In this document: positions 1 through 55,124 of the stretch, piece after piece | Layout: each line of letters opens with the position of its first letter | Numbering within the stretch: position 1 is the first letter of the stretch | Origin: Candidatus Poribacteria bacterium | GTDB taxonomy: Bacteria > Poribacteria > WGA-4E > WGA-3G | Direction: 5' to 3' | DNA: 64,000 bases | NCBI GenBank assembly: GCA_964291315.2 | Contig: OZ219753.1 | Coordinates: forward strand, 416,001-480,000 | Position numbers and translations under genes: made by a program | Notes under the pieces: model-generated | The model's input: only the letters and a program-made list of their open reading frames with translations | The model's database searches: none | What the model was told of the DNA's origin: nothing

Positions 1-519
1 TAAACCCAGCACAAACGAAGGCAGCCGACCATCCACAAACGCGATCTCCTCATACATGCCCGCCACAAGACGATACCCGAGAAAAGCAGGCGACACCTCG
101 CCATAAGGATCGTAAATGTAATACTCACGCACACGCAGCACCGAGGCATACAAGTCACGCTTAGTCGTCAAGTCGTGCTGATAGGTGCTTGGACTCGCCA
201 ACTCTAACACAAAATCGGGGGCGTGTCCCTCGTCCCAGACCCGATAGGTGCGCCGATCCTTTTTGCTAACCCCGAAGACAACGAACACATCTGGCGACAC
301 CGATTTCTTAGGGTTGCCCTCCTCATAATACATCATCAGGTTGCCAGAGACATATACATCGTCGATCTCTTGGAAGTGGTGCCTGAGTATCTGAATGCAA
401 CGCATCATGAGGTCTCTGTGTTTGTCGGTCTCTGCCATGGGTTTACCGTCCGATTCGGGATAGACAATCGTTGGGTCTGGGTAGACCAACGTTGGAACGG
501 CTTTTATTCTTCTGTCCAT
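1..519 (-). CDS. Uma2/DUF820-family PD-(D/E)xK endonuclease (3' end runs off the window; absent from the ORF track)
   Basis: Manual translation from ATG at 519 (SD AGGAGGG): MDRRIKAVPTLVYPDPTIVYPESDGKPMAETDKH...VYVSGNLMMYY...SPDVFVVFG...PDFVLELASPSTYQHDLTTKRDLYASVLRVREYYIYDP. These are the typical Uma2 motifs. Confidence 0.9.
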   Translation of the reverse strand, partial: MDRRIKAVPTLVYPDPTIVYPESDGKPMAETDKHRDLMMRCIQILRHHFQEIDDVYVSGNLMMYYEEGNPKKSVSPDVFVVFGVSKKDRRTYRVWDEGHAPDFVLELASPSTYQHDLTTKRDLYASVLRVREYYIYDPYGEVSPAFLGYRLVAGMYEEIAFVDGRLPSFVLGL

Positions 520-5294: not shown

Positions 5295-7301
5295 ATGCAG
5301 ACAGAGATTGAGAAACTCAGGGCGTTAATACGTTATCATGAGCACAAGTACTATGTCGAAAATCAGCCGGAAATCTCTGACACAGATTTTGACGCGCTCA
5401 TGACGGAACTTGAGGCGCTTGAATCATCCGACGCAACGCCTATCCCCCCGGATTCACCAACGCAACGGGTGGGGGGCGGCGTAGAATTAGGCACTCGATT
5501 ACCGCATCGCAGCCCAATGTTGAGCCTGAACAATAGCTACGATGAAAAGGAACTCCTGGAATTCGGAGAACGTGTGCAACGGTTGTTAAAAGTCATCCCC
5601 GTTGAATACGTTACCGAGCTGAAAATCGACGGGTTAGGCGTTTCGCTCACCTATGAAAACGGGATCTTTACACAAGGCCTCACGCGCGGTGATGGCGAAT
5701 ACGGAGAAGATGTAACCGACAATTTACGGACCATCCGATCTGTACCGCTGCGGCTCACAGAAACGGAAACAACAGTGCCGGCCATGCTAGAAGTGCGGGG
5801 TGAGGTCTTCATTCCGAAGCATCGCCTTGATGAAATCAACACACAACGTGAGGCGGAAGGGGACCCGCCCTTCGCGAATCCACGAAACGCTGCCGCCGGT
5901 TCACTCAGACTGTTAGATGCCGCTATCACCGCTTCACGACCGTTAGATATTTTCGTATACAATCTCGATTACGCCGAAGGATTTGAGTTCACAAAACATA
6001 CAGAATCATTAGAAAACATGCGGCATTGGGGGTTGAAATGTAACCCAAATACTGCCTGCCACAAATCAATTGAAGGCGTTCAAGCCTATTACCAACACTG
6101 GGTCGAAAAACGGCATGAACTTCCATATGAGGTTGACGGTATTGTTGTAAAAGTCAACCAGATCTCCCAGCAACAGACCCTTGGATCCACTTCTAAATAC
6201 CCGCGTTGGGCAATTGCATACAAATTCAGCGCACAGCAAGCCATCACGACTGTTGAGAAAATAGAGGTGCAGGTAGGACGTACCGGGACACTGACCCCCG
6301 TTGCCATTTTGAAGCCGATACAGCTTGCAGGGGCAACGATTACAAACGCTACACTCCACAATGAACAGGAGATTCGGGCAAAAGACGTTCGCGTCGGTGA
6401 CCGAATTCTGCTTGAACGCGCCGGAGATGTTATCCCTAAAATTGTTGAAGTGCTAACGGCAGACCGGACGGGTGATGAAGTTGTTTTCGAATTTCCCGAA
6501 CGTTGCCCGGCTTGTGGTACCACCGCCCAGCGCACCGAAAAAGAGGTCGCTGTTCGATGCGGGAATGTCAGATGTGCGGCACAACTGAAACGTCGCATCG
6601 CGCATTACGTTTCGCGAAATGCTCTCCAAATTGAAGGGCTTGGACCTGCCACAATTGCCCAATTGGTCGATAAAAAATTAGTGCATGACGTGGCGGATCT
6701 TTATACATTAAAGGCAGCGGAATTAAGCAAATTAGATCGGATGGGTGCACTCTCCGCCCGAAACCTGGTTCACCACATTGAGCAGAGTAAGACGGTACCG
6801 GCAGAAAGATTGCTCTTCGGGCTCGGTATTCTTCATGTAGGTGAAAATGTCGCCGCTCTGCTCATCGAAACCTTCTTAGCATTAGACAAACTCAGTGAAG
6901 CAAAACCAGAAGACATCGAATCGGTGAAAGGGATCGGCACACAGATAGCAGAAAGTGTATATAGATTCTTTTTGAAGAACCAAGCACTCCTCGAAAAATT
7001 ACGGCAGGCAGGCTTACATTGCTTCACAACACAGGCAGCATCTACTCAATCGCAAGCAAGTGACACTGTAGATAATAGCTTCTTCAGCGGAAAAACTTTT
7101 GTTGTGACAGGCAGTCTTAAGGGGATGACTCGTTCAGAAGCGTCTGATAGGATTAAAAACCGAGGCGGAAGGGTTACCTCAAGTGTGACAAGTAAAACAG
7201 ACTACCTCATTGCCGGCAAGAACAGCGGGAGCAAATACACGAAGGCAGAAGTACTGGGGATCCCAATTTTGACAGAAACCGAATTTCTCGAAAAACTGTA
7301 G
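5295..7301 (+). CDS. ligA: NAD-dependent DNA ligase
   Basis: KIDG adenylation motif, NPRNAAAGSLR, Zn finger, HhH repeats, C-terminal BRCT. Confidence 0.98.
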   Translation: MQTEIEKLRALIRYHEHKYYVENQPEISDTDFDALMTELEALESSDATPIPPDSPTQRVGGGVELGTRLPHRSPMLSLNNSYDEKELLEFGERVQRLLKVIPVEYVTELKIDGLGVSLTYENGIFTQGLTRGDGEYGEDVTDNLRTIRSVPLRLTETETTVPAMLEVRGEVFIPKHRLDEINTQREAEGDPPFANPRNAAAGSLRLLDAAITASRPLDIFVYNLDYAEGFEFTKHTESLENMRHWGLKCNPNTACHKSIEGVQAYYQHWVEKRHELPYEVDGIVVKVNQISQQQTLGSTSKYPRWAIAYKFSAQQAITTVEKIEVQVGRTGTLTPVAILKPIQLAGATITNATLHNEQEIRAKDVRVGDRILLERAGDVIPKIVEVLTADRTGDEVVFEFPERCPACGTTAQRTEKEVAVRCGNVRCAAQLKRRIAHYVSRNALQIEGLGPATIAQLVDKKLVHDVADLYTLKAAELSKLDRMGALSARNLVHHIEQSKTVPAERLLFGLGILHVGENVAALLIETFLALDKLSEAKPEDIESVKGIGTQIAESVYRFFLKNQALLEKLRQAGLHCFTTQAASTQSQASDTVDNSFFSGKTFVVTGSLKGMTRSEASDRIKNRGGRVTSSVTSKTDYLIAGKNSGSKYTKAEVLGIPILTETEFLEKL

Positions 7302-7333: not shown

Positions 7334-8011
7334 TCAATCAGAAGATTTGTAGTGCGCACAAGAGGTACGCAAACGGCACTCTTGACAGTTCGGTGTTTTT
7401 TTATGACATACTCTTGCACCATGAGCAACGATTAAGGCGTGATATTCATTGAAGAAGTCAACATTGTGAGGAAGATTGTCCATAAACAGGGCGCGGAGTT
7501 TTTCATAATCATATTTCCCTTCAACCCATCCTAACCGCGAGACAAGTCTATAAGTGTAAGAATCAACGACAAAACTCGGTTTTCCTGCAGCGTAGAGGAT
7601 AATTGTATCCGCTGTTTCGGGACCGATCCCGTAGATAGAAAGGAGTTCCTCACGTAACGCCGGGACATCTTGTGTGAACATCACGGGCATAGGACGTTTC
7701 TTGATATATTCCACAAACGCACGTACCTTTTGTGCCTTCATACGGAAATAGCGTGACGGTCGGAGAAGACGTTCCAATGTAGGTTGACCGACCCAATCTA
7801 TCTCTTCGGGAGTAAGGACACCCGCGGACATGAGATTGTCTAACGCTTTTTCTACATTACGCCAAGCCGTCGCTTGCGTTAGAATCGCACCAAGAACCAC
7901 TTCAAACGGGGTATCTGCGGGCCACCATTTACGGTGTCCGTGTTGCGCAAGAAGCGCATTGTAGAGTGAATACAGTTTTTCAGTCCGATTCTCTTCGCAC
8001 AGAATTTGCAT
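7334..8011 (-). CDS. Endonuclease III-related HhH-GPD DNA glycosylase with 4Fe-4S cluster
   Basis: WWPADTPFEV..GAILTQ, GIGPETAD, VVD, CHKKTPNCQECRLRTSC. Confidence 0.92.
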   Translation of the reverse strand: MQILCEENRTEKLYSLYNALLAQHGHRKWWPADTPFEVVLGAILTQATAWRNVEKALDNLMSAGVLTPEEIDWVGQPTLERLLRPSRYFRMKAQKVRAFVEYIKKRPMPVMFTQDVPALREELLSIYGIGPETADTIILYAAGKPSFVVDSYTYRLVSRLGWVEGKYDYEKLRALFMDNLPHNVDFFNEYHALIVAHGARVCHKKTPNCQECRLRTSCAHYKSSD

Positions 8012-9898: not shown

Positions 9899-12800
9899 AT
9901 GAACATTCTGCATGAATTAAACGACAAACAGAGAGAATCGGTAATACATAAAGAGGGAGCACTTCTTGTTATTGCAGGTCCCGGCACAGGAAAAACAAAA
10001 GTTATTACGCACCGTATTGCCTACTTAATTCGTGAACACGGTATCAAGCCCGAGAGCATTCTTGTGATTACCTTTACGAATAAAGCCGCTGAAGAGGTGC
10101 AGGAACGCATTAACAACACCATCGGTGAACCACACGGATCCAGAGTCAAATCTTGCACTTTCCATGCCTTTTGCGTCAAGGTGCTCCGAAAGCACGCCCT
10201 CCACATCGGACTGAGCGAAAATTTTACTATCTTCGATCAGGAGTTTCAAGACGAAATTCTAATAGAGAGTGTCCGTGAGTTAAACCTTGACGCTGGCGAC
10301 TACCCGCCGTGGTTCCTACGCAGCATTATCAGTGGCATCAAATGTAGACTACAAAACCTTGTCGATATAGCAGATACACTCGATATTTATGAGTCCGCCG
10401 CAACAATTGAAAACATCCAAGATATATTGAAAACTTATCAGGATAAACTAGACGAATACGATGCCCTCGATTTCGACGATCTGCTTGTGAAAACGGTCGA
10501 ACTACTCCAGCAAGTAGGAGAGGTTCGAGACGCTTACCGTAAGACGATCTCGTATATTTTGGTAGACGAATATCATGATGTGAATAATATACAGTATCGC
10601 TTGCTTCGCCTGCTCTGCCCGCCACCGGGAGGGAATCTCATGGTAGTTGCTGATGAAGATCAGGCGATCTATAGTTGGCGAGGGTCAAGTCCACAATATA
10701 TTGAGGATTTCAGAACCGACTTTAACCCCAAAACGCTCACATTGGATGATCACTACCGGTGTAGTGAAAAAATTTTGCGTGCCGCAGAGGAAGTCATCTC
10801 CAGAAACACAGAACGACAAAAACAGCACACCCTCAGAACACACAAAGATGTCGGGCGAGATATCTTTCACTATACCTTCGATACCCCTGTGGTAGAAGCA
10901 CGCAGTATCATCGGTCTTATCAAGAAGCTGGTAGAACAACGCAATTGTTCTTACCGGGATATAGCGATCTTTTATCGAAAACACAAACTTGCAGATATTT
11001 TGGGTGAACAACTCCTACGCGCAAACATCAAATTTCAACGTCTTCAACCAATGAACTCCTTTGGAGAAGGAAATAGTAAAGACATTCTTGCATATCTCCG
11101 TTTCATCCAGTGGCAACTTCCGCAAGACCTCGAACGAGCGATCAGTTTTCCAAATACCTGCATTGACGATCTAACATGGGTGCGCCTCAAGTGGCTTGCA
11201 CAAAGAGAAGGCATCGCGTTCATAGATCTCCTAAAACATATTGAGGCATATCCACAAGATGTTGGGCCTTTAACCCGCCGAAATGTCTGCCAATTCTGGA
11301 GACAACTTGAGGATTTATCAACTGAAACCGAAAAACAAGAAGCCGATAAAACAATCCTAAAACTCTTTGATACTTTGGAAAGAGCACGCTCTCCATATCG
11401 AGCTGAAGAGTTAGATATTCTCGAAAAACAACCTGATCCCTCGAATCTTGCAACAGCACAAGATGTTCTCTATAGTGCCCTTGCGCTTGATGAACCAATT
11501 CAGATTACTGCCTGCCATGGGATTGACGAATACGCTGCTGCACATATTATCTATCAAACACTCGAAACTTATTTGCATCATACTGCGCAACTCCAATTCC
11601 TACCCGCCGACGAAAACAGAGGGACACCGAAGGAAAACGGGGTTCATCTGCTCATCGGTGATTTCACGGACCTCGGAGAGACAGTACGAAATGCTAGAGC
11701 AATTCTTATCGGGACAGCCGATACGATTAATACGGATGTGGTTCAACTCGGATCGGAAGGGGTTCGAAGCATCGCAGCGCTTAAACTTTGCCAACGACTT
11801 ATCAACCGCTTTGAAAGCCCAAACATGGCAGATATGATTGTCTATGATCTGGAGACAACCGATATCGACCCGAAAAGGGCACAAGTTGTTGAGATCGCAG
11901 CACACCGCCTCAGCGCGATTGGCGGTGAAGTCGAACGGTTTTATCGGTTGGTAAAACCACCGGGCGGACACATTCCGCGATCTGCCACACACATCCACGG
12001 TATCGATACAGAAACAGTCAAAGATTCACCAGGGATCGAAACGGTTTTACCTGAATTTCTTGGGTTTGTCCAAGACCGAATTCTGATTGGACACAACGTA
12101 GAAGCTTACGATAATCTTATACTTGAACGAGACTTGAGAGATTATCTGAAAATAGATCTACCGTCACCACATTACGATACGCTTACTACATCGCGTCGGC
12201 TTTTTCCGAGACAACGGTGTAACCTGGAAGCACTTGCCCAAAAATTTAATATCAAACATGGGCATTTACATGGTGCCTTAGAGGATGTCAAAGTTAATCG
12301 AGAGATATTTAAAGAGCTTATTAAAATTGATGCTTACAAACGCGAAGTGAAGTCTCTACCCGAACTCTTACCACTCGTCTGCATCGGTATTTTCGCTAAA
12401 ACTGAGACACAATCAGAGGCAGAGACAGCGGAAACATCACAGCCAAAGAGTACAACCACAACAGAGACCTTAACCGAGCCTGAGGTGTTTCTTAATGCTG
12501 CGAAGCGTTTCGTCCAGACACACGAGGCTAAACTCCCCGAGCGCTTTCCGCTTGAAACAGAGGAGGCGGAACAAGCGACTGCCTACATGGCAAAATTACA
12601 AGACGGCCCTGCGCCAGAGTTTCCGGAAGACCTCACTTGGCAACAACACCGTATTCAGTTCATGAACGCCGTACTTCATTTTAAATCAATGAGCGGTATG
12701 AATAGACTCACTGATTTTTTGGACTATCAGAAGTTGCTCACAAATGCTGACCAACTTGACAACACGACCGAGCAGCTGACGTTAATGACACTGCACGCAG

Positions 12801-13060
12801 CGAAAGGCACAGAATTTCCCATCGTTATCATTATCGGTATGGAAGAAGGAACTTTCCCGATGTGGCGACGGCACATGACAGAGGCAGAGCTTGAGGAAGA
12901 ACGCAGGCTCTTCTATGTCGGTATGACCCGCGCACAAGCACAGCTTTATCTCAGCTCTGTCACGTATCGTTCTGGGGATAGGGATTGCGCACCGTCGATG
13001 TTTGTCAAGGAGATTCCATCTAATTACGTGGTTAAATGGAGTCCACGGGGTAGGAATTAA
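9899..13060 (+). CDS. UvrD/PcrA-family SF1 helicase with inserted degenerate RecJ/DHH-like region and DEDDh 3'-5' exonuclease domain
   Basis: Helicase motifs GPGTGKT, TFTNKAA, DEYHD, DEDQAIYSWRG, TLHAAKGTEF, EERRLFYVGMTRA. Exonuclease motifs YDLETT, GHNVEAYD, HGALED. Confidence 0.92.
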   Translation: MNILHELNDKQRESVIHKEGALLVIAGPGTGKTKVITHRIAYLIREHGIKPESILVITFTNKAAEEVQERINNTIGEPHGSRVKSCTFHAFCVKVLRKHALHIGLSENFTIFDQEFQDEILIESVRELNLDAGDYPPWFLRSIISGIKCRLQNLVDIADTLDIYESAATIENIQDILKTYQDKLDEYDALDFDDLLVKTVELLQQVGEVRDAYRKTISYILVDEYHDVNNIQYRLLRLLCPPPGGNLMVVADEDQAIYSWRGSSPQYIEDFRTDFNPKTLTLDDHYRCSEKILRAAEEVISRNTERQKQHTLRTHKDVGRDIFHYTFDTPVVEARSIIGLIKKLVEQRNCSYRDIAIFYRKHKLADILGEQLLRANIKFQRLQPMNSFGEGNSKDILAYLRFIQWQLPQDLERAISFPNTCIDDLTWVRLKWLAQREGIAFIDLLKHIEAYPQDVGPLTRRNVCQFWRQLEDLSTETEKQEADKTILKLFDTLERARSPYRAEELDILEKQPDPSNLATAQDVLYSALALDEPIQITACHGIDEYAAAHIIYQTLETYLHHTAQLQFLPADENRGTPKENGVHLLIGDFTDLGETVRNARAILIGTADTINTDVVQLGSEGVRSIAALKLCQRLINRFESPNMADMIVYDLETTDIDPKRAQVVEIAAHRLSAIGGEVERFYRLVKPPGGHIPRSATHIHGIDTETVKDSPGIETVLPEFLGFVQDRILIGHNVEAYDNLILERDLRDYLKIDLPSPHYDTLTTSRRLFPRQRCNLEALAQKFNIKHGHLHGALEDVKVNREIFKELIKIDAYKREVKSLPELLPLVCIGIFAKTETQSEAETAETSQPKSTTTTETLTEPEVFLNAAKRFVQTHEAKLPERFPLETEEAEQATAYMAKLQDGPAPEFPEDLTWQQHRIQFMNAVLHFKSMSGMNRLTDFLDYQKLLTNADQLDNTTEQLTLMTLHAAKGTEFPIVIIIGMEEGTFPMWRRHMTEAELEEERRLFYVGMTRAQAQLYLSSVTYRSGDRDCAPSMFVKEIPSNYVVKWSPRGRN

Positions 13061-49640: not shown

Positions 49641-52511
49641 ATGAGACAAACTGTTGCAGTTAAAGGCGCGCGCGAAAACAATCTACAAAATATTGAAGTC
49701 GAAATCCCGCGGAACCAGCTCGTCGTCGTCACGGGTATCAGCGGTTCCGGTAAATCATCGCTAGCATTCGATACCATCTATGCTGAAGGACAGCGCCGAT
49801 TCCTTGAGTCGATATCCACGTACGCTAAACGTTTTATCACTCAGCTTAAGAAACCTGATGTCGACTTCATTGACGGGCTGTCCCCGGTTGTCTCTATAGA
49901 GCAAAAGACGATCACTATGAACCCGCGCTCCACCGTCGGCACAATGACCGATTTGCAGGACTACCTCCGTATGCTCTTCGCAACTATCGGTGCGGCATAC
50001 TGTCCATATTGTGAAACCCAAATACCCATCCGATCGCACCGTCAAATCTTGGAGCGTCTGCTTGCAATGCCAGAAGGTTCCCAAGTTGAGATTCACGCCC
50101 CCGTCTTTAAAATCTACGGCGAGGATTATGACTATCTCTTCGACGACATCCGTACGAAAGGCTGTAGGCACGTTAGAATAGACGGCATCGAACACGACAT
50201 TAGCGAAGAAATTGAACTCGACCCGGACCTCGAATACAACATACAGGTCATCGTCGACAAATTTTTTATTAAAAAGGATATTGATATACAAGTCCTTGCC
50301 TCTCTTGAACATGCAATGCTCATCGGTGAGGGTTTCATGCGTTTTGATGTCCAGTTTCCTCAGGAAACCAAATCGGATACTATAGACCCTTTAGAAGGTT
50401 TTGGATGTCTGAAACATGGAATGATCATGACTGAACTTGGACCGCATCACTTCACCTTTAACGAACCGACCGGGGCATGTGGAACCTGTTCTGGACTCGG
50501 TACTTATTTACAGGTACACCCAAACTTGCTTGTTCCTGACAGGAGCCGGAGTATCGCCGAAGGGGCATTTGTCCATCAAGCCTTTAACTACGATCCCGAT
50601 CGCTGGGACGGCAGAACAATGTACAGCCTTGCTGCACACTACGGGTTTGACTTAGAGACGCCTTTCGCAGACCTACCTGAACGGATCGTTGATATTCTCT
50701 ATTATGGGACGCGCGGTGAGGAATTCCCTATCCGACAGCCTGAAGGCGCACGACCGATCGAAAAACGCCACGTCGGTCGAAAAATCCGCTTTGATGGAAT
50801 CGCCACACGGATCGACAGGCACTATAGAAACTACCGAAAGCGCGGAGAAGCACACTCCGGTATGGAAGAGTATCTCCGAAAGGTAATGGTAGAGCGCACC
50901 TGCCCTGATTGCGGCGGTACAAAGCTCAAAAAACAGCGACTTCTCGTTACCATTGAGAACCAGACGATCCATGATGTTGGCGAACTACACTTTGAAGAGT
51001 TGCGAGATTTCTTGCTAAGTATCACAGACATGCACGAAAAACAGCAAGAAGCGGGTGAACGGATTATCAAGGAACTCGTCTCTCGGATTAACTTGCTCCT
51101 TGGCATCGGACTCGACTACCTGAATCTCAACCGGCGGTCCGCCACACTCTCCGGCGGTGAATCCCAGCGCATCCGTCTCTCTACACAGATCGGCTCAGGA
51201 TTGATGGGCATGCTCTATGTGCTTGATGAGCCCAGCATCGGTTTACACCCAAAAGACAATGTTAAAATGATAGAGACGCTGCGGAAATTGCGCGACATTG
51301 GCAACACCGTCATCGTCGTTGAACACGATGAAAGCACAATCCGTGCTGCAGATCACATCATTGAACTCGGACCAGGACCTGGTGTCCACGGTGGACATAT
51401 CGTCGTCCAAGGCGACCTTGATACAATTCTTGACTGCCCCAAGTCTTGGACAGGTCTCTATATGAGTGGCAGACGTGAGATTTCGCTACCGAAACACCGG
51501 CGCCACTTGAACGGCAAATTCTTAAGCATCACCGGAGCAAAGGAAAACAATCTCAGAAATATTGATGTCGACATACCGCTCGGGATCTTTATCTGCATTA
51601 CCGGGGCTTCCGGTTCAGGCAAAAGCACGCTCGTCAACGAGATTCTCTATAAGAAACTTTATTCCCTCTATCATGACAGTCGAACCCTCTATGGCGTACA
51701 CGATGAATTGGACGGGCACGAGTACATAGATGGTGTAATTAACATAGATCAATCTCCGATAGGGCGTTCACCGCGTTCTAACCCGGCGACCTATATCGGA
51801 TTTTACGATAATATCCGCAAGCTTTTTGCTAGCACTCCGCTTGCAGCTGCAAGGGGCTACACCGCTTCACGTTTTAGCTTCAATGTCAAAGGTGGACGGT
51901 GTGAAGAATGCCACGGTGAAGGCACTATTACCACGCAGCTCCATTTCATGCCGGATGTAGAGGTCGTCTGTCCAACCTGTAAAGGGGCGCGTTACAATGA
52001 AGATACGCTTAATGTAACCTACAACGGCAGAAATATCTCCGAAATCCTGAATATGTCAATTGAGGAAGGCGTTGAATTTTTCTCCGATCAGCGGCTCATC
52101 CATCACAAACTGAATGTTCTCAATCAGCTCGGTATAGGGTATCTCCAGATTGGACATCCCGCCACTATTCTTTCCGGCGGAGAGGCACAACGGATAAAGT
52201 TGGCAAGCGAGCTCGGTAAAATCAAACGAGGGAAACATAATCTCTATATCTTAGATGAACCCACCACTGGACTCCACATGGCGGACGTTCAGAAGCTCTT
52301 AGACAGTCTCAATCGCCTTGTTGATAATGGACACACCGTTCTTGTGATTGAGCACCATCTGGATGTCATTAAAACCGCCGATTATGTGATTGATCTCGGG
52401 CCAGAAGGTGGACATAAGGGCGGAGAAGTTTTAGCGCACGGCACCCCCGAAGAAATTGCCAAAGTCAAAGCCTCTTACACAGGGAAATTCCTGAAGGAGT
52501 ACCTGATCTAA
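49641..52511 (+). CDS. uvrA: Excinuclease ABC subunit A (possibly a paralog)
   Basis: Two ABC ATPase sets ([46 protein letters not shown]) and Zn modules. Confidence 0.95.
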
Positions 52512-52922: not shown

Positions 52923-55124
52923 TTGACCGATAACTTGTTAGGATCTCTGAACGATGTCCAGCGCGAGGCAGTCCAACACACCGACGGACCGCTCCTCATC
53001 TTGTCTGGGGCAGGCAGCGGCAAAACGCGCGTCATCACACACCGGATCGCTTATCTAATCAAACATCACGATGTTTCACCCTTCCATATTCTCGCCGTGA
53101 CTTTTACAAACAAGGCAGCAAATGAGATGAAGCAACGCTTGGATGGACTTATAGAAGGCAGTGTCAGCCAAAACCTCTGGGTATCCACTTTCCATGCGAC
53201 ATGTGCTCGCGTCCTTCGGCGAAATATTGAGAAATTGGACGCGCGGATAGAGACTGAAAACGCATCCGAAACCAGAAACCACGCGTACACCCGCTACTTT
53301 ACTATTTTCGATACAGGTGAACAGGCCACCGCCGTCAAAGATGTACTCCGACAGCTCAACTATAGCGATAAAAACTTCAACCCACACGCTATCCTTAGCC
53401 ACATCAGTCGCGCCAAAAATGAGTCTATCTCACCGGACACATTCCAAAAGGAGGCGGACGGCTATTTTGACAACGTGGTTGCAGAAGTCTATGCTCTTTA
53501 CCAAGACACGCTAAGTCTCAACAATGCCCTTGATTTTGATGACCTACTGCTCTTTACTGTTCAGCTCTTGCGTGAAAACACCGAGGTGCGTCAATACTAT
53601 CAGGACAAGTTCGAGTATATTCTCGTTGACGAATATCAGGATACCAACCGGTGTCAGTATGAACTTGTGCGTCTGCTGACTAGCACGAAACAGAACATCT
53701 GTGTTGTCGGGGATGACGACCAATCCATCTATGCTTTTCGCGGTGCCGACATCAGAAATATCCTCGATTTTGAGAAGGATTACCCGGGAACTCATGTCCT
53801 CCGCTTAGAACAAAACTATCGATCCACTCAAAATATCCTAGATGCAGCCTGGGGCGTTGTACACAACAACAGAGAGCGAAAGTCCAAAAAACTCTGGACA
53901 GAAAATGACATCGGTGAACTTGTTACCTGCTATGAGGCGGTCGACGAAAATGATGAGGCAGGTTACGTCGGAAATCAAATCTCGGATTGGCATAACGAGG
54001 GGGTTGATTACAAGGACTTTGCGATCTTCTACCGAACCAACGCCCAGTCTCGAATCTTTGAAGAAGCCCTTCGAGCTGCGAACATTCCGTATCAAATTGT
54101 CGGCGGGGTCGGCTTCTATGATCGCATGGAAGTTAAGGACCTCCTCGCCTATCTCCGTGTGATTTCTAATCCGAGCGACTCTATGAGCCTTCGACGTATC
54201 ATAAACGTGCCGAGCCGCGGCATTGGAAGTACCACGCTTCAAAGACTGATCGATTTTGCCGTACGGAAAAATATAACGCTTTTTGATGCAGTTCAGAGTG
54301 TTAATGAAATTTCCACAATTAACCGTGGTATTCAAGCGAAGGTTCAACGTTTTGCCGAGATTTTTGATCACTTCGACGCAACTGTAATGCCCGTGGATGC
54401 CCTCGACTATGTTCTAAAGGCAACAGGCTATCTCAAAAGTTTGAAGCAGCAGAATACAATCGAGGCGCAAAATCGAGTTGAGAACATTGAAGAACTCATT
54501 AACGCTGTTATCGAGTATCAACAAAACTACGCCGATCCGACACTATCGGACTATTTGGAAAATGTCGCTCTTACCACGGATATAGATCAAATGGAAACAG
54601 ACGCTACCGATCTGGTGACGTTGATGACTTTGCACAGTGCGAAGGGGCTAGAATTTCCGTTCGTTTTCATTGTCGGTATGGAAGAAGGTTATCTACCACA
54701 TCGACGCTCTCTCGATAGCCAGGTGGAATTAGAGGAAGAACGGAGACTCTGCTACGTTGGGATCACACGCACAATGGAGCAGCTATATCTGTTACACGCC
54801 AAGTCGAGGCGGACGTTCCGAGAGATAGAATATCGCACCCCATCTCGTTTTATCTATGAAATTCCAGAGCATCTCATCAAGCATGTTGATCGGTACCGCT
54901 CTCTATTTCATGAAAAAAGCGACTTATATGACGTGGTCTCTGAAGAGGGTTTATCAGATTACTATGTCGACCAGATCGTTCTCCACCCGACCTTCGGCAG
55001 AGGTAAAATAACAAGGGTTAATGAAACTGGACACGACATTTATATTACCGTTCGATTTAGTCGGGCCGGCACAAAGCGGCTCTCGGTTTCGGTTGCACCC
55101 TTACAAACAGTATCCGATTCATAA
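52923..55124 (+). CDS. pcrA: ATP-dependent DNA helicase PcrA/UvrD (TTG start)
   Basis: GAGSGKT, DEYQD, GDDDQSIY.FRGA, LEQNYRS, TLHSAKGLEF, C-terminal Tudor-like V.HP.FG.G. Confidence 0.96.
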   Translation: MTDNLLGSLNDVQREAVQHTDGPLLILSGAGSGKTRVITHRIAYLIKHHDVSPFHILAVTFTNKAANEMKQRLDGLIEGSVSQNLWVSTFHATCARVLRRNIEKLDARIETENASETRNHAYTRYFTIFDTGEQATAVKDVLRQLNYSDKNFNPHAILSHISRAKNESISPDTFQKEADGYFDNVVAEVYALYQDTLSLNNALDFDDLLLFTVQLLRENTEVRQYYQDKFEYILVDEYQDTNRCQYELVRLLTSTKQNICVVGDDDQSIYAFRGADIRNILDFEKDYPGTHVLRLEQNYRSTQNILDAAWGVVHNNRERKSKKLWTENDIGELVTCYEAVDENDEAGYVGNQISDWHNEGVDYKDFAIFYRTNAQSRIFEEALRAANIPYQIVGGVGFYDRMEVKDLLAYLRVISNPSDSMSLRRIINVPSRGIGSTTLQRLIDFAVRKNITLFDAVQSVNEISTINRGIQAKVQRFAEIFDHFDATVMPVDALDYVLKATGYLKSLKQQNTIEAQNRVENIEELINAVIEYQQNYADPTLSDYLENVALTTDIDQMETDATDLVTLMTLHSAKGLEFPFVFIVGMEEGYLPHRRSLDSQVELEEERRLCYVGITRTMEQLYLLHAKSRRTFREIEYRTPSRFIYEIPEHLIKHVDRYRSLFHEKSDLYDVVSEEGLSDYYVDQIVLHPTFGRGKITRVNETGHDIYITVRFSRAGTKRLSVSVAPLQTVSDS

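Follow-up and report, generated by a model that had tools for sequence, protein, structure and literature searches.

The window analysed here, a 64,000-nucleotide stretch of Candidatus Poribacteria DNA (contig OZ219753.1, positions 416,001 to 480,000), carries on its forward strand an open reading frame of 1,053 codons without stops, as given by the open reading frame list and the translation, whose product joins a PcrA/UvrD-type helicase to two further domains nested inside it. An earlier note, made from the letters alone, had described the gene as a helicase that encloses a RecJ-like domain, which in turn encloses a DEDDh exonuclease, and all three layers held in Pfam searches, comparisons with solved chains, structure prediction and profile alignment with hhalign (Table 1). 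The short strings quoted in that note are all present, namely DPSNL...AAAHII at residues 513–551 (window 11435–11551), AALKLCQRL at 626–634 and LLPLVCIGI at 823–831 in the RecJ-like part, and DLETT at 650–654, GHNVEAYD at 731–738 and HGALED at 791–796 in the exonuclease. The family of helicase–RecJ–DEDDh proteins to which this gene belongs is uncharacterised.

Table 1 Layers of the nested helicase gene and related features
Feature	Coordinates in the window	Strand	Basis
Whole gene: 1,053-residue superfamily 1A (SF1A) helicase with nested RecJ-like/DEDDh insert	9899..13060	+	Open reading frame list, translation, Pfam
Residues 1–496: helicase 1A, 1B, N-terminal part of 2A, N-terminal part of 2B	9899..11386	+	Pfam UvrD-helicase, PcrA alignment, motif positions
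Residues 497–642: predicted N-terminal part of RecJ-derived DHH domain; catalytic residues replaced	11387..11824	+	hhalign to RecJ 50–213, VIA-align, motif map
Residues 643–817: predicted DEDDh (DnaQ/RNase T-type) 3′–5′ exonuclease domain	11825..12349	+	Pfam RNase_T, 1j53_A superposition, conservation
Residues 818–905: predicted C-terminal part of RecJ-derived DHH domain, motif IV strand LLPLVCIGI, then helices	12350..12613	+	hhalign to RecJ 217–291, structural matches
Residues 906–1053: C-terminal part of 2B and C-terminal part of 2A	12614..13057	+	PcrA 512–646 aligned to residues 918–1044; Pfam UvrD_C_2 961–1018
Canonical PcrA/UvrD paralogue, 733 residues, outside the fusion (context only)	52923..55124	+	Open reading frame list; PF00580
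RecJ–DEDDh proteins P0195, P0208, P0225, P0234, P0248, P0254 and P0265	outside window		

The outer layer is a helicase of the SF1A group. Pfam UvrD-helicase matches residues 7–275 (E value 5.6e-81, 272.6 bits against a cut-off of 23) and UvrD_C matches residues 281–1021 in a manner split by the insert (155.9 bits, cut-off 25.6). Among solved chains, PcrA of B. stearothermophilus (1pjr) aligned over the whole helicase core (E = 2.9e-104) in two pieces, with PcrA 8–491 on residues 3–485 and PcrA 512–646 on residues 918–1044, and M. smegmatis UvrD1 19–468 aligned to residues 3–446. The two-piece alignment means that about 430 residues (486–917) stand in for about 20 residues of PcrA within the 2B domain, and this break at residues 485/918 bears out the location in 2B that had been proposed for the insert; in M. 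smegmatis UvrD1, the 2B domain is given as amino acids 404–585 (PMC13646824). Helicase motifs I, Ia, II, III, V and VI are all found in the product, with the Walker A sequence GPGTGKT at residues 27–33, TFTNKAA at 58–64, motif II DEYHD at 223–227, motif III VADEDQAIYSWRG at 250–262, motif V LHAAKGTEF at 965–973 and motif VI VGMTRA at 1007–1012, and the key residues of these motifs are at least 90% conserved among 58 representatives of the family. The histidine of motif II, to which the earlier note had drawn attention, recurs in 24 of the 57 family rows that have the motif, DE(Y/F)(Q/H)D, and is thus a family trait and not damage. As judged from the PcrA alignment, the protein stops at the end of the PcrA core, without the C-terminal Tudor-like extension. 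The canonical PcrA that had been reported further along the window is also there: it lies directly behind uvrA (49641–52511) and, of all genes in the genome, scores highest against PF00580 (322.8 bits).

The innermost layer is a DnaQ-type domain, to which Pfam RNase_T matches over residues 647–804 (window 11837–12310; 5.4e-25, 89.3 bits, cut-off 24). The ExoI, ExoII and ExoIII (Hx4D) motifs are all intact, and each of the five catalytic residues, D650, E652, D738, H791 and D796, is 95–97% conserved among the 58 representatives, in agreement with the intact state claimed for this domain. When the model of the insert was compared with solved structures using VIA-align, its residues 160–324 superposed on DNA polymerase III (Pol III) epsilon (1j53_A) with a Z score of 24.3 and a root-mean-square deviation (rmsd) of 1.4 Å over 163 aligned residues, and further superpositions were obtained with PolC (9qpc, Z 23.0) and the exonuclease domain of S. 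aureus DinG (Z 22.9). The closest sequence match among solved chains was the PolC exonuclease 2p1j (E = 1.1e-23). The domain thus carries a full catalytic set and is predicted to be a working 3′–5′ exonuclease.

The nature of its substrate was considered from the same matches. The Pfam family matched is RNase_T, RNase T, ERI1/3′hExo and ISG20 occur among the structural matches at Z 16–19, and PcrA/UvrD helicases have been linked to R-loop suppression (PMC8318588), all of which would fit an exonuclease that acts on RNA in an RNase T-like manner, as part of a helicase that processes R-loops or the 3′ ends of transcripts. We regard this as unlikely, because the top matches in both sequence and structure, the PolC exonuclease chain 2p1j, Pol III epsilon, 9qpc and the DinG exonuclease, are DNA proofreaders. 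Moreover, PcrA and UvrD bind RNA polymerase through their C-terminal region, which is lacking in a protein that ends where the PcrA core ends.

A role in replication would be another use for such a domain. The insert is the sole RNase_T/TIGR00573 match in this 95%-complete genome, and with the insert as the query, the listed matches from 101 genomes of the phylum include no stand-alone frame of DnaQ size, so the exonuclease might replace the missing DnaQ (Pol III epsilon) as the replication proofreader, with the helicase bringing it to the fork. This seems very improbable to us, as the scores fall below the cut-offs of both epsilon models (TIGR01406, 79 against 222.7 bits; TIGR00573, 65.2 against 71.5 bits), the domain is internal and hence has no epsilon-type C-terminal tail, and 7 of the 101 genomes, a whole genus among them, gave no match to the gene. 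In many bacteria, furthermore, proofreading is described as a function of the PHP domain of DnaE (PMC11348249).

The middle layer is formed by the two flanks of the exonuclease. We folded the insert (residues 486–917) from a 65-row alignment and obtained a model with a mean predicted local distance difference test (pLDDT) score of 94.4 and a predicted template modelling (pTM) score of 0.91, which predicts that the DHH-like part and the DEDDh part pack into a single compact unit. In a VIA-align search against all representatives, the best non-exonuclease matches of this model bridge both flanks and bypass the exonuclease. They comprise T. thermophilus RecJ (1ir6_A, Z 16.3, rmsd 2.7, 175 aligned, model 20..418 on chain 49..259; and 2zxo_A, Z 15.5), S. 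aureus RecJ (8y30_A, Z 15.0), GAN (5ghr_A, Z 14.1), RecJ2 (7ykv_A, Z 13.0), RecJ-Cdc45 (7bhi_A, Z 12.8) and a DHH domain (5yh1_A, Z 12.5), DHH-family chains accounting for seven among the 50 rows of the search. A Foldseek search of the whole insert against the PDB returned DEDDh exonucleases only and no RecJ match. The N-terminal flank folded alone (residues 525–645; pLDDT 90.6) again placed RecJ 1ir6_A first in VIA-align (Z 10.9, 114 of 121 residues), with a de novo design (Z 10.3) and SIS isomerases (Z 9.4) as runners-up and Cdc45 chains also among the matches (Z 9.3). Since this structural margin is thin, kinship was tested at the level of sequence too.

For this purpose, a flank profile was made from the alignment columns for residues 500–642 and 818–905, with the exonuclease columns removed, and compared by means of hhalign with the N-terminal regions of 29 RecJ proteins encoded in genomes of the phylum of the window. 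The two profiles match collinearly over 201 columns, from flank 1–226 to RecJ 50–291, with a probability of 97.1%, an E value of 4.9e-11 and a score of 78.2, and the DHH domain of D. radiodurans RecJ, given as residues 49–295 (PMC4846377), has the same extent. Residues 497–642 are the counterpart of the RecJ N-terminal helices and the strands of motifs I to III. The aligned elements include the helices that precede motif I in RecJ and the strand of motif I itself; further on, AFKLAQAL is set against AALKLCQRL and LDLVALGT against LLPLVCIGI, two pairings identical to those made in the earlier note. Control scores were 10.9 for the reversed template, at most 15.9 for 20 column shuffles and at most 33.0 for 10 shuffles of 15-column blocks. 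A single RecJ sequence, that of the same genome, still scored 60.0 against the flank profile (E = 1.3e-8). The score of the NrnA-like DHH protein of this genome was only 11.2, which indicates kinship to RecJ specifically.

These comparisons bear on the alternative that the flanks are a generic Rossmann-like linker domain whose likeness to RecJ arose by convergence. It could appeal to the Z scores of the N-terminal flank, in which RecJ barely exceeds the de novo design and the SIS isomerases, and to the Pfam DHH model (PF01368), which does not detect the flank: there is no match in the insert at E values up to 1, and the whole-genome search yielded two loci only, neither of which is this gene. 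Convergence is nevertheless extremely improbable, as the hhalign match is collinear, lies far above all 31 controls and takes in the helices peculiar to RecJ ahead of motif I, the second DHH protein of the genome fails to match, and plain BLASTP connects the insert with an insert-bearing RecJ at E = 4e-25 over both junctions. The DHH-fold similarity of the flanks, which the earlier note had left to be checked, is thereby present in structure (RecJ, Z 16.3) as well as in sequence, and residues 497–642 and 818–905 are predicted to make up, between them, a DHH domain of the RecJ type.

The chemistry of RecJ has not been carried over with the fold. In D. radiodurans RecJ, two metals are described as bound by D79, D81, D83, D135, H159 and D223 (PMC4846377). 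The equivalent positions here are C539, G541, D543, a gap or G587, T606 and K834, so that one of the six ligands is kept (D543, equivalent to D83) and a lysine occupies the place of the motif IV aspartate. D543 is kept in 37 of the 58 representatives, there is no conservation at the other ligand positions, and the DHH tripeptide occurs in the flank of none of the 58. Pfam detected no DHHA1 or RecJ_OB domain after the DHH part, and past the motif IV strand the secondary structure of the model consists of helices only. With five of the six metal ligands lost and no DHHA1 or OB partner, the domain cannot act as a RecJ nuclease, and the view that it is catalytically dead was correct.

Proteins of the likely donor type for this module were found among other matches to the insert. 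Seven of its 150 best representative hits are proteins of 733–761 amino acids with DHH, RNase_T, DHHA1 and RecJ_OB domains, some of them labelled 'single-stranded-DNA-specific exonuclease RecJ' in Elusimicrobiota and Candidatus Hydrogenedentes records. All seven retain GDxDxDG, D(C/N)G and DHH, have the exonuclease motif between motifs III and IV, and show a RecJ-model match that is split at model position ~211–217, which is the insertion point in the window gene. BLASTP of the insert against P0248 gave one collinear alignment over both junctions (query 30–348, 28% identity, E = 4e-25). With all RecJ motifs, DHHA1 and OB intact, these RecJ–DEDDh proteins may contain exonucleases of both polarities in one chain. 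The window protein and these RecJ variants share the same DHH and DEDDh module, with the insertion between motifs III and IV; the variants, however, keep the DHH motifs, DHHA1 and RecJ_OB and have no helicase, whereas the module of the window protein has lost the DHH ligands, DHHA1 and OB and is housed in a helicase. On these sequence comparisons, the module most likely arose in RecJ and was later taken into a UvrD-type 2B domain, after which the RecJ chemistry decayed. In searches of the literature that left subscription journals mostly uncovered, we found no description of a UvrD-type helicase with an internal DEDDh/RecJ-like domain or of a RecJ with a DnaQ-like insert.

The RecJ genes of the phylum have peculiarities of their own. 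The genome's own RecJ is an 886-amino-acid open frame (L011 1186–3444; G000:C4, ~367 kb), about 300 residues longer than the usual bacterial RecJ, the excess lying in a C-terminal region, and long RecJ frames of 850–913 amino acids recur across the phylum. In another genome, four adjacent RecJ-like matches (G011:C1:2707491-2713985), three of them in one open frame of 1,860 amino acids, look like a tandem multiplication of RecJ.

The nested helicase is widespread in the phylum. Its close relatives (68–76% identity) are labelled Candidatus Poribacteria, and the insert was matched in 94 of 101 genomes and 15 of 17 genera, in frames that are nearly all ~1,000–1,140 amino acids long and mostly present in one copy. 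An intein or an assembly artefact was dropped as an explanation on account of the open frame conserved in these 94 genomes and of the insert folding at a pLDDT of 94. Two full-length copies occur in three genomes, in tandem in G018 (C28:55891-60581) and G032 (C1:5359986-5364564) and on two contigs in G083 (L053), and the duplicated copies are 43–51% identical to the window protein. Conversely, one genome keeps only a remnant of the C-terminal flank, 126 amino acids with two stop codons (G001:C14:165691-166002), which, together with a genus without a match, indicates that the gene has been lost in places.

Outside this phylum, at least 10 of the 61 sampled Gemmatimonadota genomes have one full-length match (694–785 bits, frames of 973–1,211 amino acids), or at least 9 of 60 when the unpublished G162 is excluded. 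At least 12 more have both halves in one frame of 818–1,021 amino acids with profile positions ~535–600 unmatched; these figures are lower bounds, with 123 further matches outside the listing. The unmatched positions in these 12 genomes (for example, G130:C61, G165:C33 and G148:C26) are the core of the N-terminal part of the DHH-like domain, a pattern that points to a RecJ layer further eroded or replaced in that branch. The label Chloroflexales is carried by one representative. In a library of 1.84 billion proteins, 31 hits to the insert had E values below 1e-30, and 57 of the best 150 hits are 880–1,200 amino acids long; the nested Pfam pattern was seen in 15 of the 15 hits of this length that were scanned and in none of the others. 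Single labelled genomes of Anaerolineales, Dehalococcoidia, Planctomycetota and Dormiibacterota, one each and thus not speaking for their phyla, yielded only ordinary helicases and separate exonuclease genes with the family profile. A profile search for related loci returned 80 loci with match lengths of ~1.8–2.2 kb, and these were rejected as members of the nested family, as such lengths mark ordinary PcrA/UvrD/Rep. A protein atlas contains clusters with UvrD, RNase_T and UvrD_C in Cyanobacteriota, Bacillota, Bacteroidota and phages, assigned by the Pfam trio. Automatic annotation has thus already recorded the bare domain trio in several phyla, and the novelty lies only in the RecJ layer and the nesting.

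The surroundings of the gene reveal no conserved partner. The flanking genes in the window encode LigA, an HhH-GPD glycosylase, DUF1611, DUF420, PhyH and XdhC. LigA, an NAD-dependent DNA ligase (5295–7301, + strand), and the HhH-GPD glycosylase (7334–8011, − strand) lie 2–4.6 kb upstream of the helicase and make up a loose repair neighbourhood, which is not conserved in the 11 other loci examined. Across the phylum, no neighbour is common to more than 3 of 12 loci, and those that are shared, in up to three loci, are metabolic genes.

An anti-phage helicase–nuclease of the Gabija or Nhi kind was weighed against this setting. PADLOC models for GajB and DRT-helicase match the protein (1e-102 to 1e-90), as does a Cas-associated DEDDh model (3e-32), and viral members make up half of one protein-atlas cluster that has the Pfam trio; the helicase matches, however, are limited to the generic UvrD core (residues 2–434). 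No GajA-like or other defence partner adjoins the gene, its neighbours being variable and housekeeping in kind, and a near-universal, mostly single-copy gene is unlike the patchy genes of defence systems. A defence function therefore appears quite improbable, and of the functional options named in the earlier note (resection, repair and defence), defence is the least supported.

The repair repertoire of the genome also frames the question of function. In addition to the separate PcrA, the genome encodes MutS, MutL, RecJ, ExoVII, an AddA-like helicase–nuclease and a Pol I-type exonuclease, so that double-strand-end resection and 5′–3′ excision are covered elsewhere in the genome, and with the queries used, no 3′–5′ single-stranded DNA (ssDNA) exonuclease was found elsewhere in it. 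The gene itself has a housekeeping character, being near-universal and mostly single-copy in the phylum, with no conserved neighbours and metabolic genes around it. Its most likely role would be housekeeping repair, that is, mismatch repair, nucleotide-excision repair or gap/3′-end processing.

We favour, at a probability of about 65%, the reading that the protein is a four-layer nested PcrA/UvrD paralogue that serves as a one-protein DNA strand-excision enzyme in housekeeping repair. It is the product of a stand-alone chromosomal gene and has a nesting order in which 2A contains 2B, 2B contains the RecJ-derived DHH domain and the DHH domain contains the DEDDh domain. It would be an ATP-driven 3′–5′ ssDNA translocase/helicase bearing its own 3′–5′ exonuclease: the motor would load on the 3′-ended strand at a nick, gap or tail and peel the strand off, and the exonuclease would digest the free 3′ end of the peeled strand, one polypeptide thus doing the work of UvrD and ExoI/ExoX in excision repair. 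The dead RecJ domain would hold the nuclease in place on 2B as a scaffold and might also guide ssDNA in the manner of Cdc45. The 2B domain has been described as the autoinhibitory, partner-binding domain of UvrD-class motors (PMC13646824), and a cargo of 430 residues on such a mobile governor probably couples nuclease engagement to helicase activity.

Several points weigh against this interpretation or parts of it. The scores of the protein lie far under the NCBIfam equivalog cut-offs for PcrA (510.9 against 911.2 bits), UvrD (391.6 against 1144.45 bits) and Rep (388.4 against 951.45 bits), and the roles of those enzymes are therefore not simply transferable. That the tracked strand is the one digested is a geometry suggested by analogy. 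The gene is dispensable, in that seven of the 101 genomes of the phylum have no match, including all four of one genus (g7). The strand expected to bear motif III (DHH) is absent in 39 of the 58 representatives, which shows the DHH-like domain to be eroding in parts of the family, and this erosion weakens any conserved role in guiding ssDNA. Finally, a tree of exonuclease domains (138 domains, 168 columns, quick search) was poorly resolved, with 61 of 135 inner branches below 80; five or six of the seven RecJ-borne domains group together, away from the UvrD-borne ones. The tree does not place the two groups as sisters and neither supports nor rejects a common origin, so that only the common point of insertion and the collinear alignment speak for the donor scenario.

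Beyond the strand-excision enzyme that we favour, a more specific proposal can be made, which we hold to be rather unlikely in its entirety. The insert would be the captured half of a dual-polarity RecJ–DEDDh protein and would serve on the autoinhibitory 2B domain as a sensor of 3′ ends: once the live DEDDh site and the dead shell of RecJ had bound a free 3′ end, 2B would swing and the motor would be switched on, with unwinding and digestion mechanically coupled within one chain, and the protein, carrying the only DnaQ-type nuclease, would supply the main 3′–5′ excision activity behind mismatch and excision repair in the phylum.

The architecture is of interest in several respects. It places a nuclease in 2B, the domain that decides whether UvrD-class motors unwind, and it does so by a RecJ mount without chemistry of its own, which makes it a bacterial counterpart of the Cdc45 subunit in the replicative helicase of eukaryotes. 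A plausible donor with intact RecJ motifs in other phyla would offer a readable path of domain capture and decay, within an uncharacterised family that nearly every genome of one phylum carries and that extends to at least two more phyla. Should the two activities prove to be coupled, the family would provide a natural single-chain strand-excision machine and a handle on the long-standing problem of the control of SF1A helicases by 2B.

Helicase–nuclease fusions are a known kind of protein, represented by RecB/AddA, WRN and DinG-exo, and comparison with these and related systems defines what is particular to the window protein. PcrA, UvrD and Rep (SF1A, 3′–5′) have the same motor, the same Pfam domains and all of the motifs, whereas the window protein has about 430 extra residues in 2B, no C-terminal extension and sub-cut-off scores. 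In RecB and AddA, an SF1A 3′–5′ motor is fused to a nuclease that acts on the 3′-ended strand, and their N-terminal motor regions match the window protein weakly; their nuclease, however, is a C-terminal PD-(D/E)xK endonuclease, a domain for which Pfam gave no match in the 1,053-residue protein, the PDDEXK_1 matches of the genome lying in other genes and the AddA-like gene being separate. PolC is the nearest sequence relative of the exonuclease among solved chains and likewise nests its DEDDh domain in another domain, the PHP domain, but its host is a polymerase and not a helicase or a RecJ domain. S. aureus DinG is also a bacterial single-chain helicase with a 3′–5′ DEDDh exonuclease, and both of its activities are reported to be needed for DNA crosslink repair (PMC12345164). 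Unlike DinG, an SF2 enzyme of 5′–3′ polarity with an N-terminal exonuclease, the window protein has an SF1A motor, 3′–5′ by family, and an internal exonuclease that appears to be mounted through a dead RecJ domain. For this mount the parallel is Cdc45 of the eukaryotic CMG (Cdc45–MCM–GINS) helicase, described as a RecJ/DHH fold without metal ligands that forms a non-catalytic, possibly ssDNA-binding part of the helicase (PMC4359367, PMC4846377). Both are RecJ/DHH-fold modules that have lost their metal ligands and are attached to a helicase, but Cdc45 forms a subunit of its own in a hexameric SF6 helicase and lacks a second nuclease, whereas the window protein has its RecJ-like module within the chain of an SF1A motor and an exonuclease within that module.

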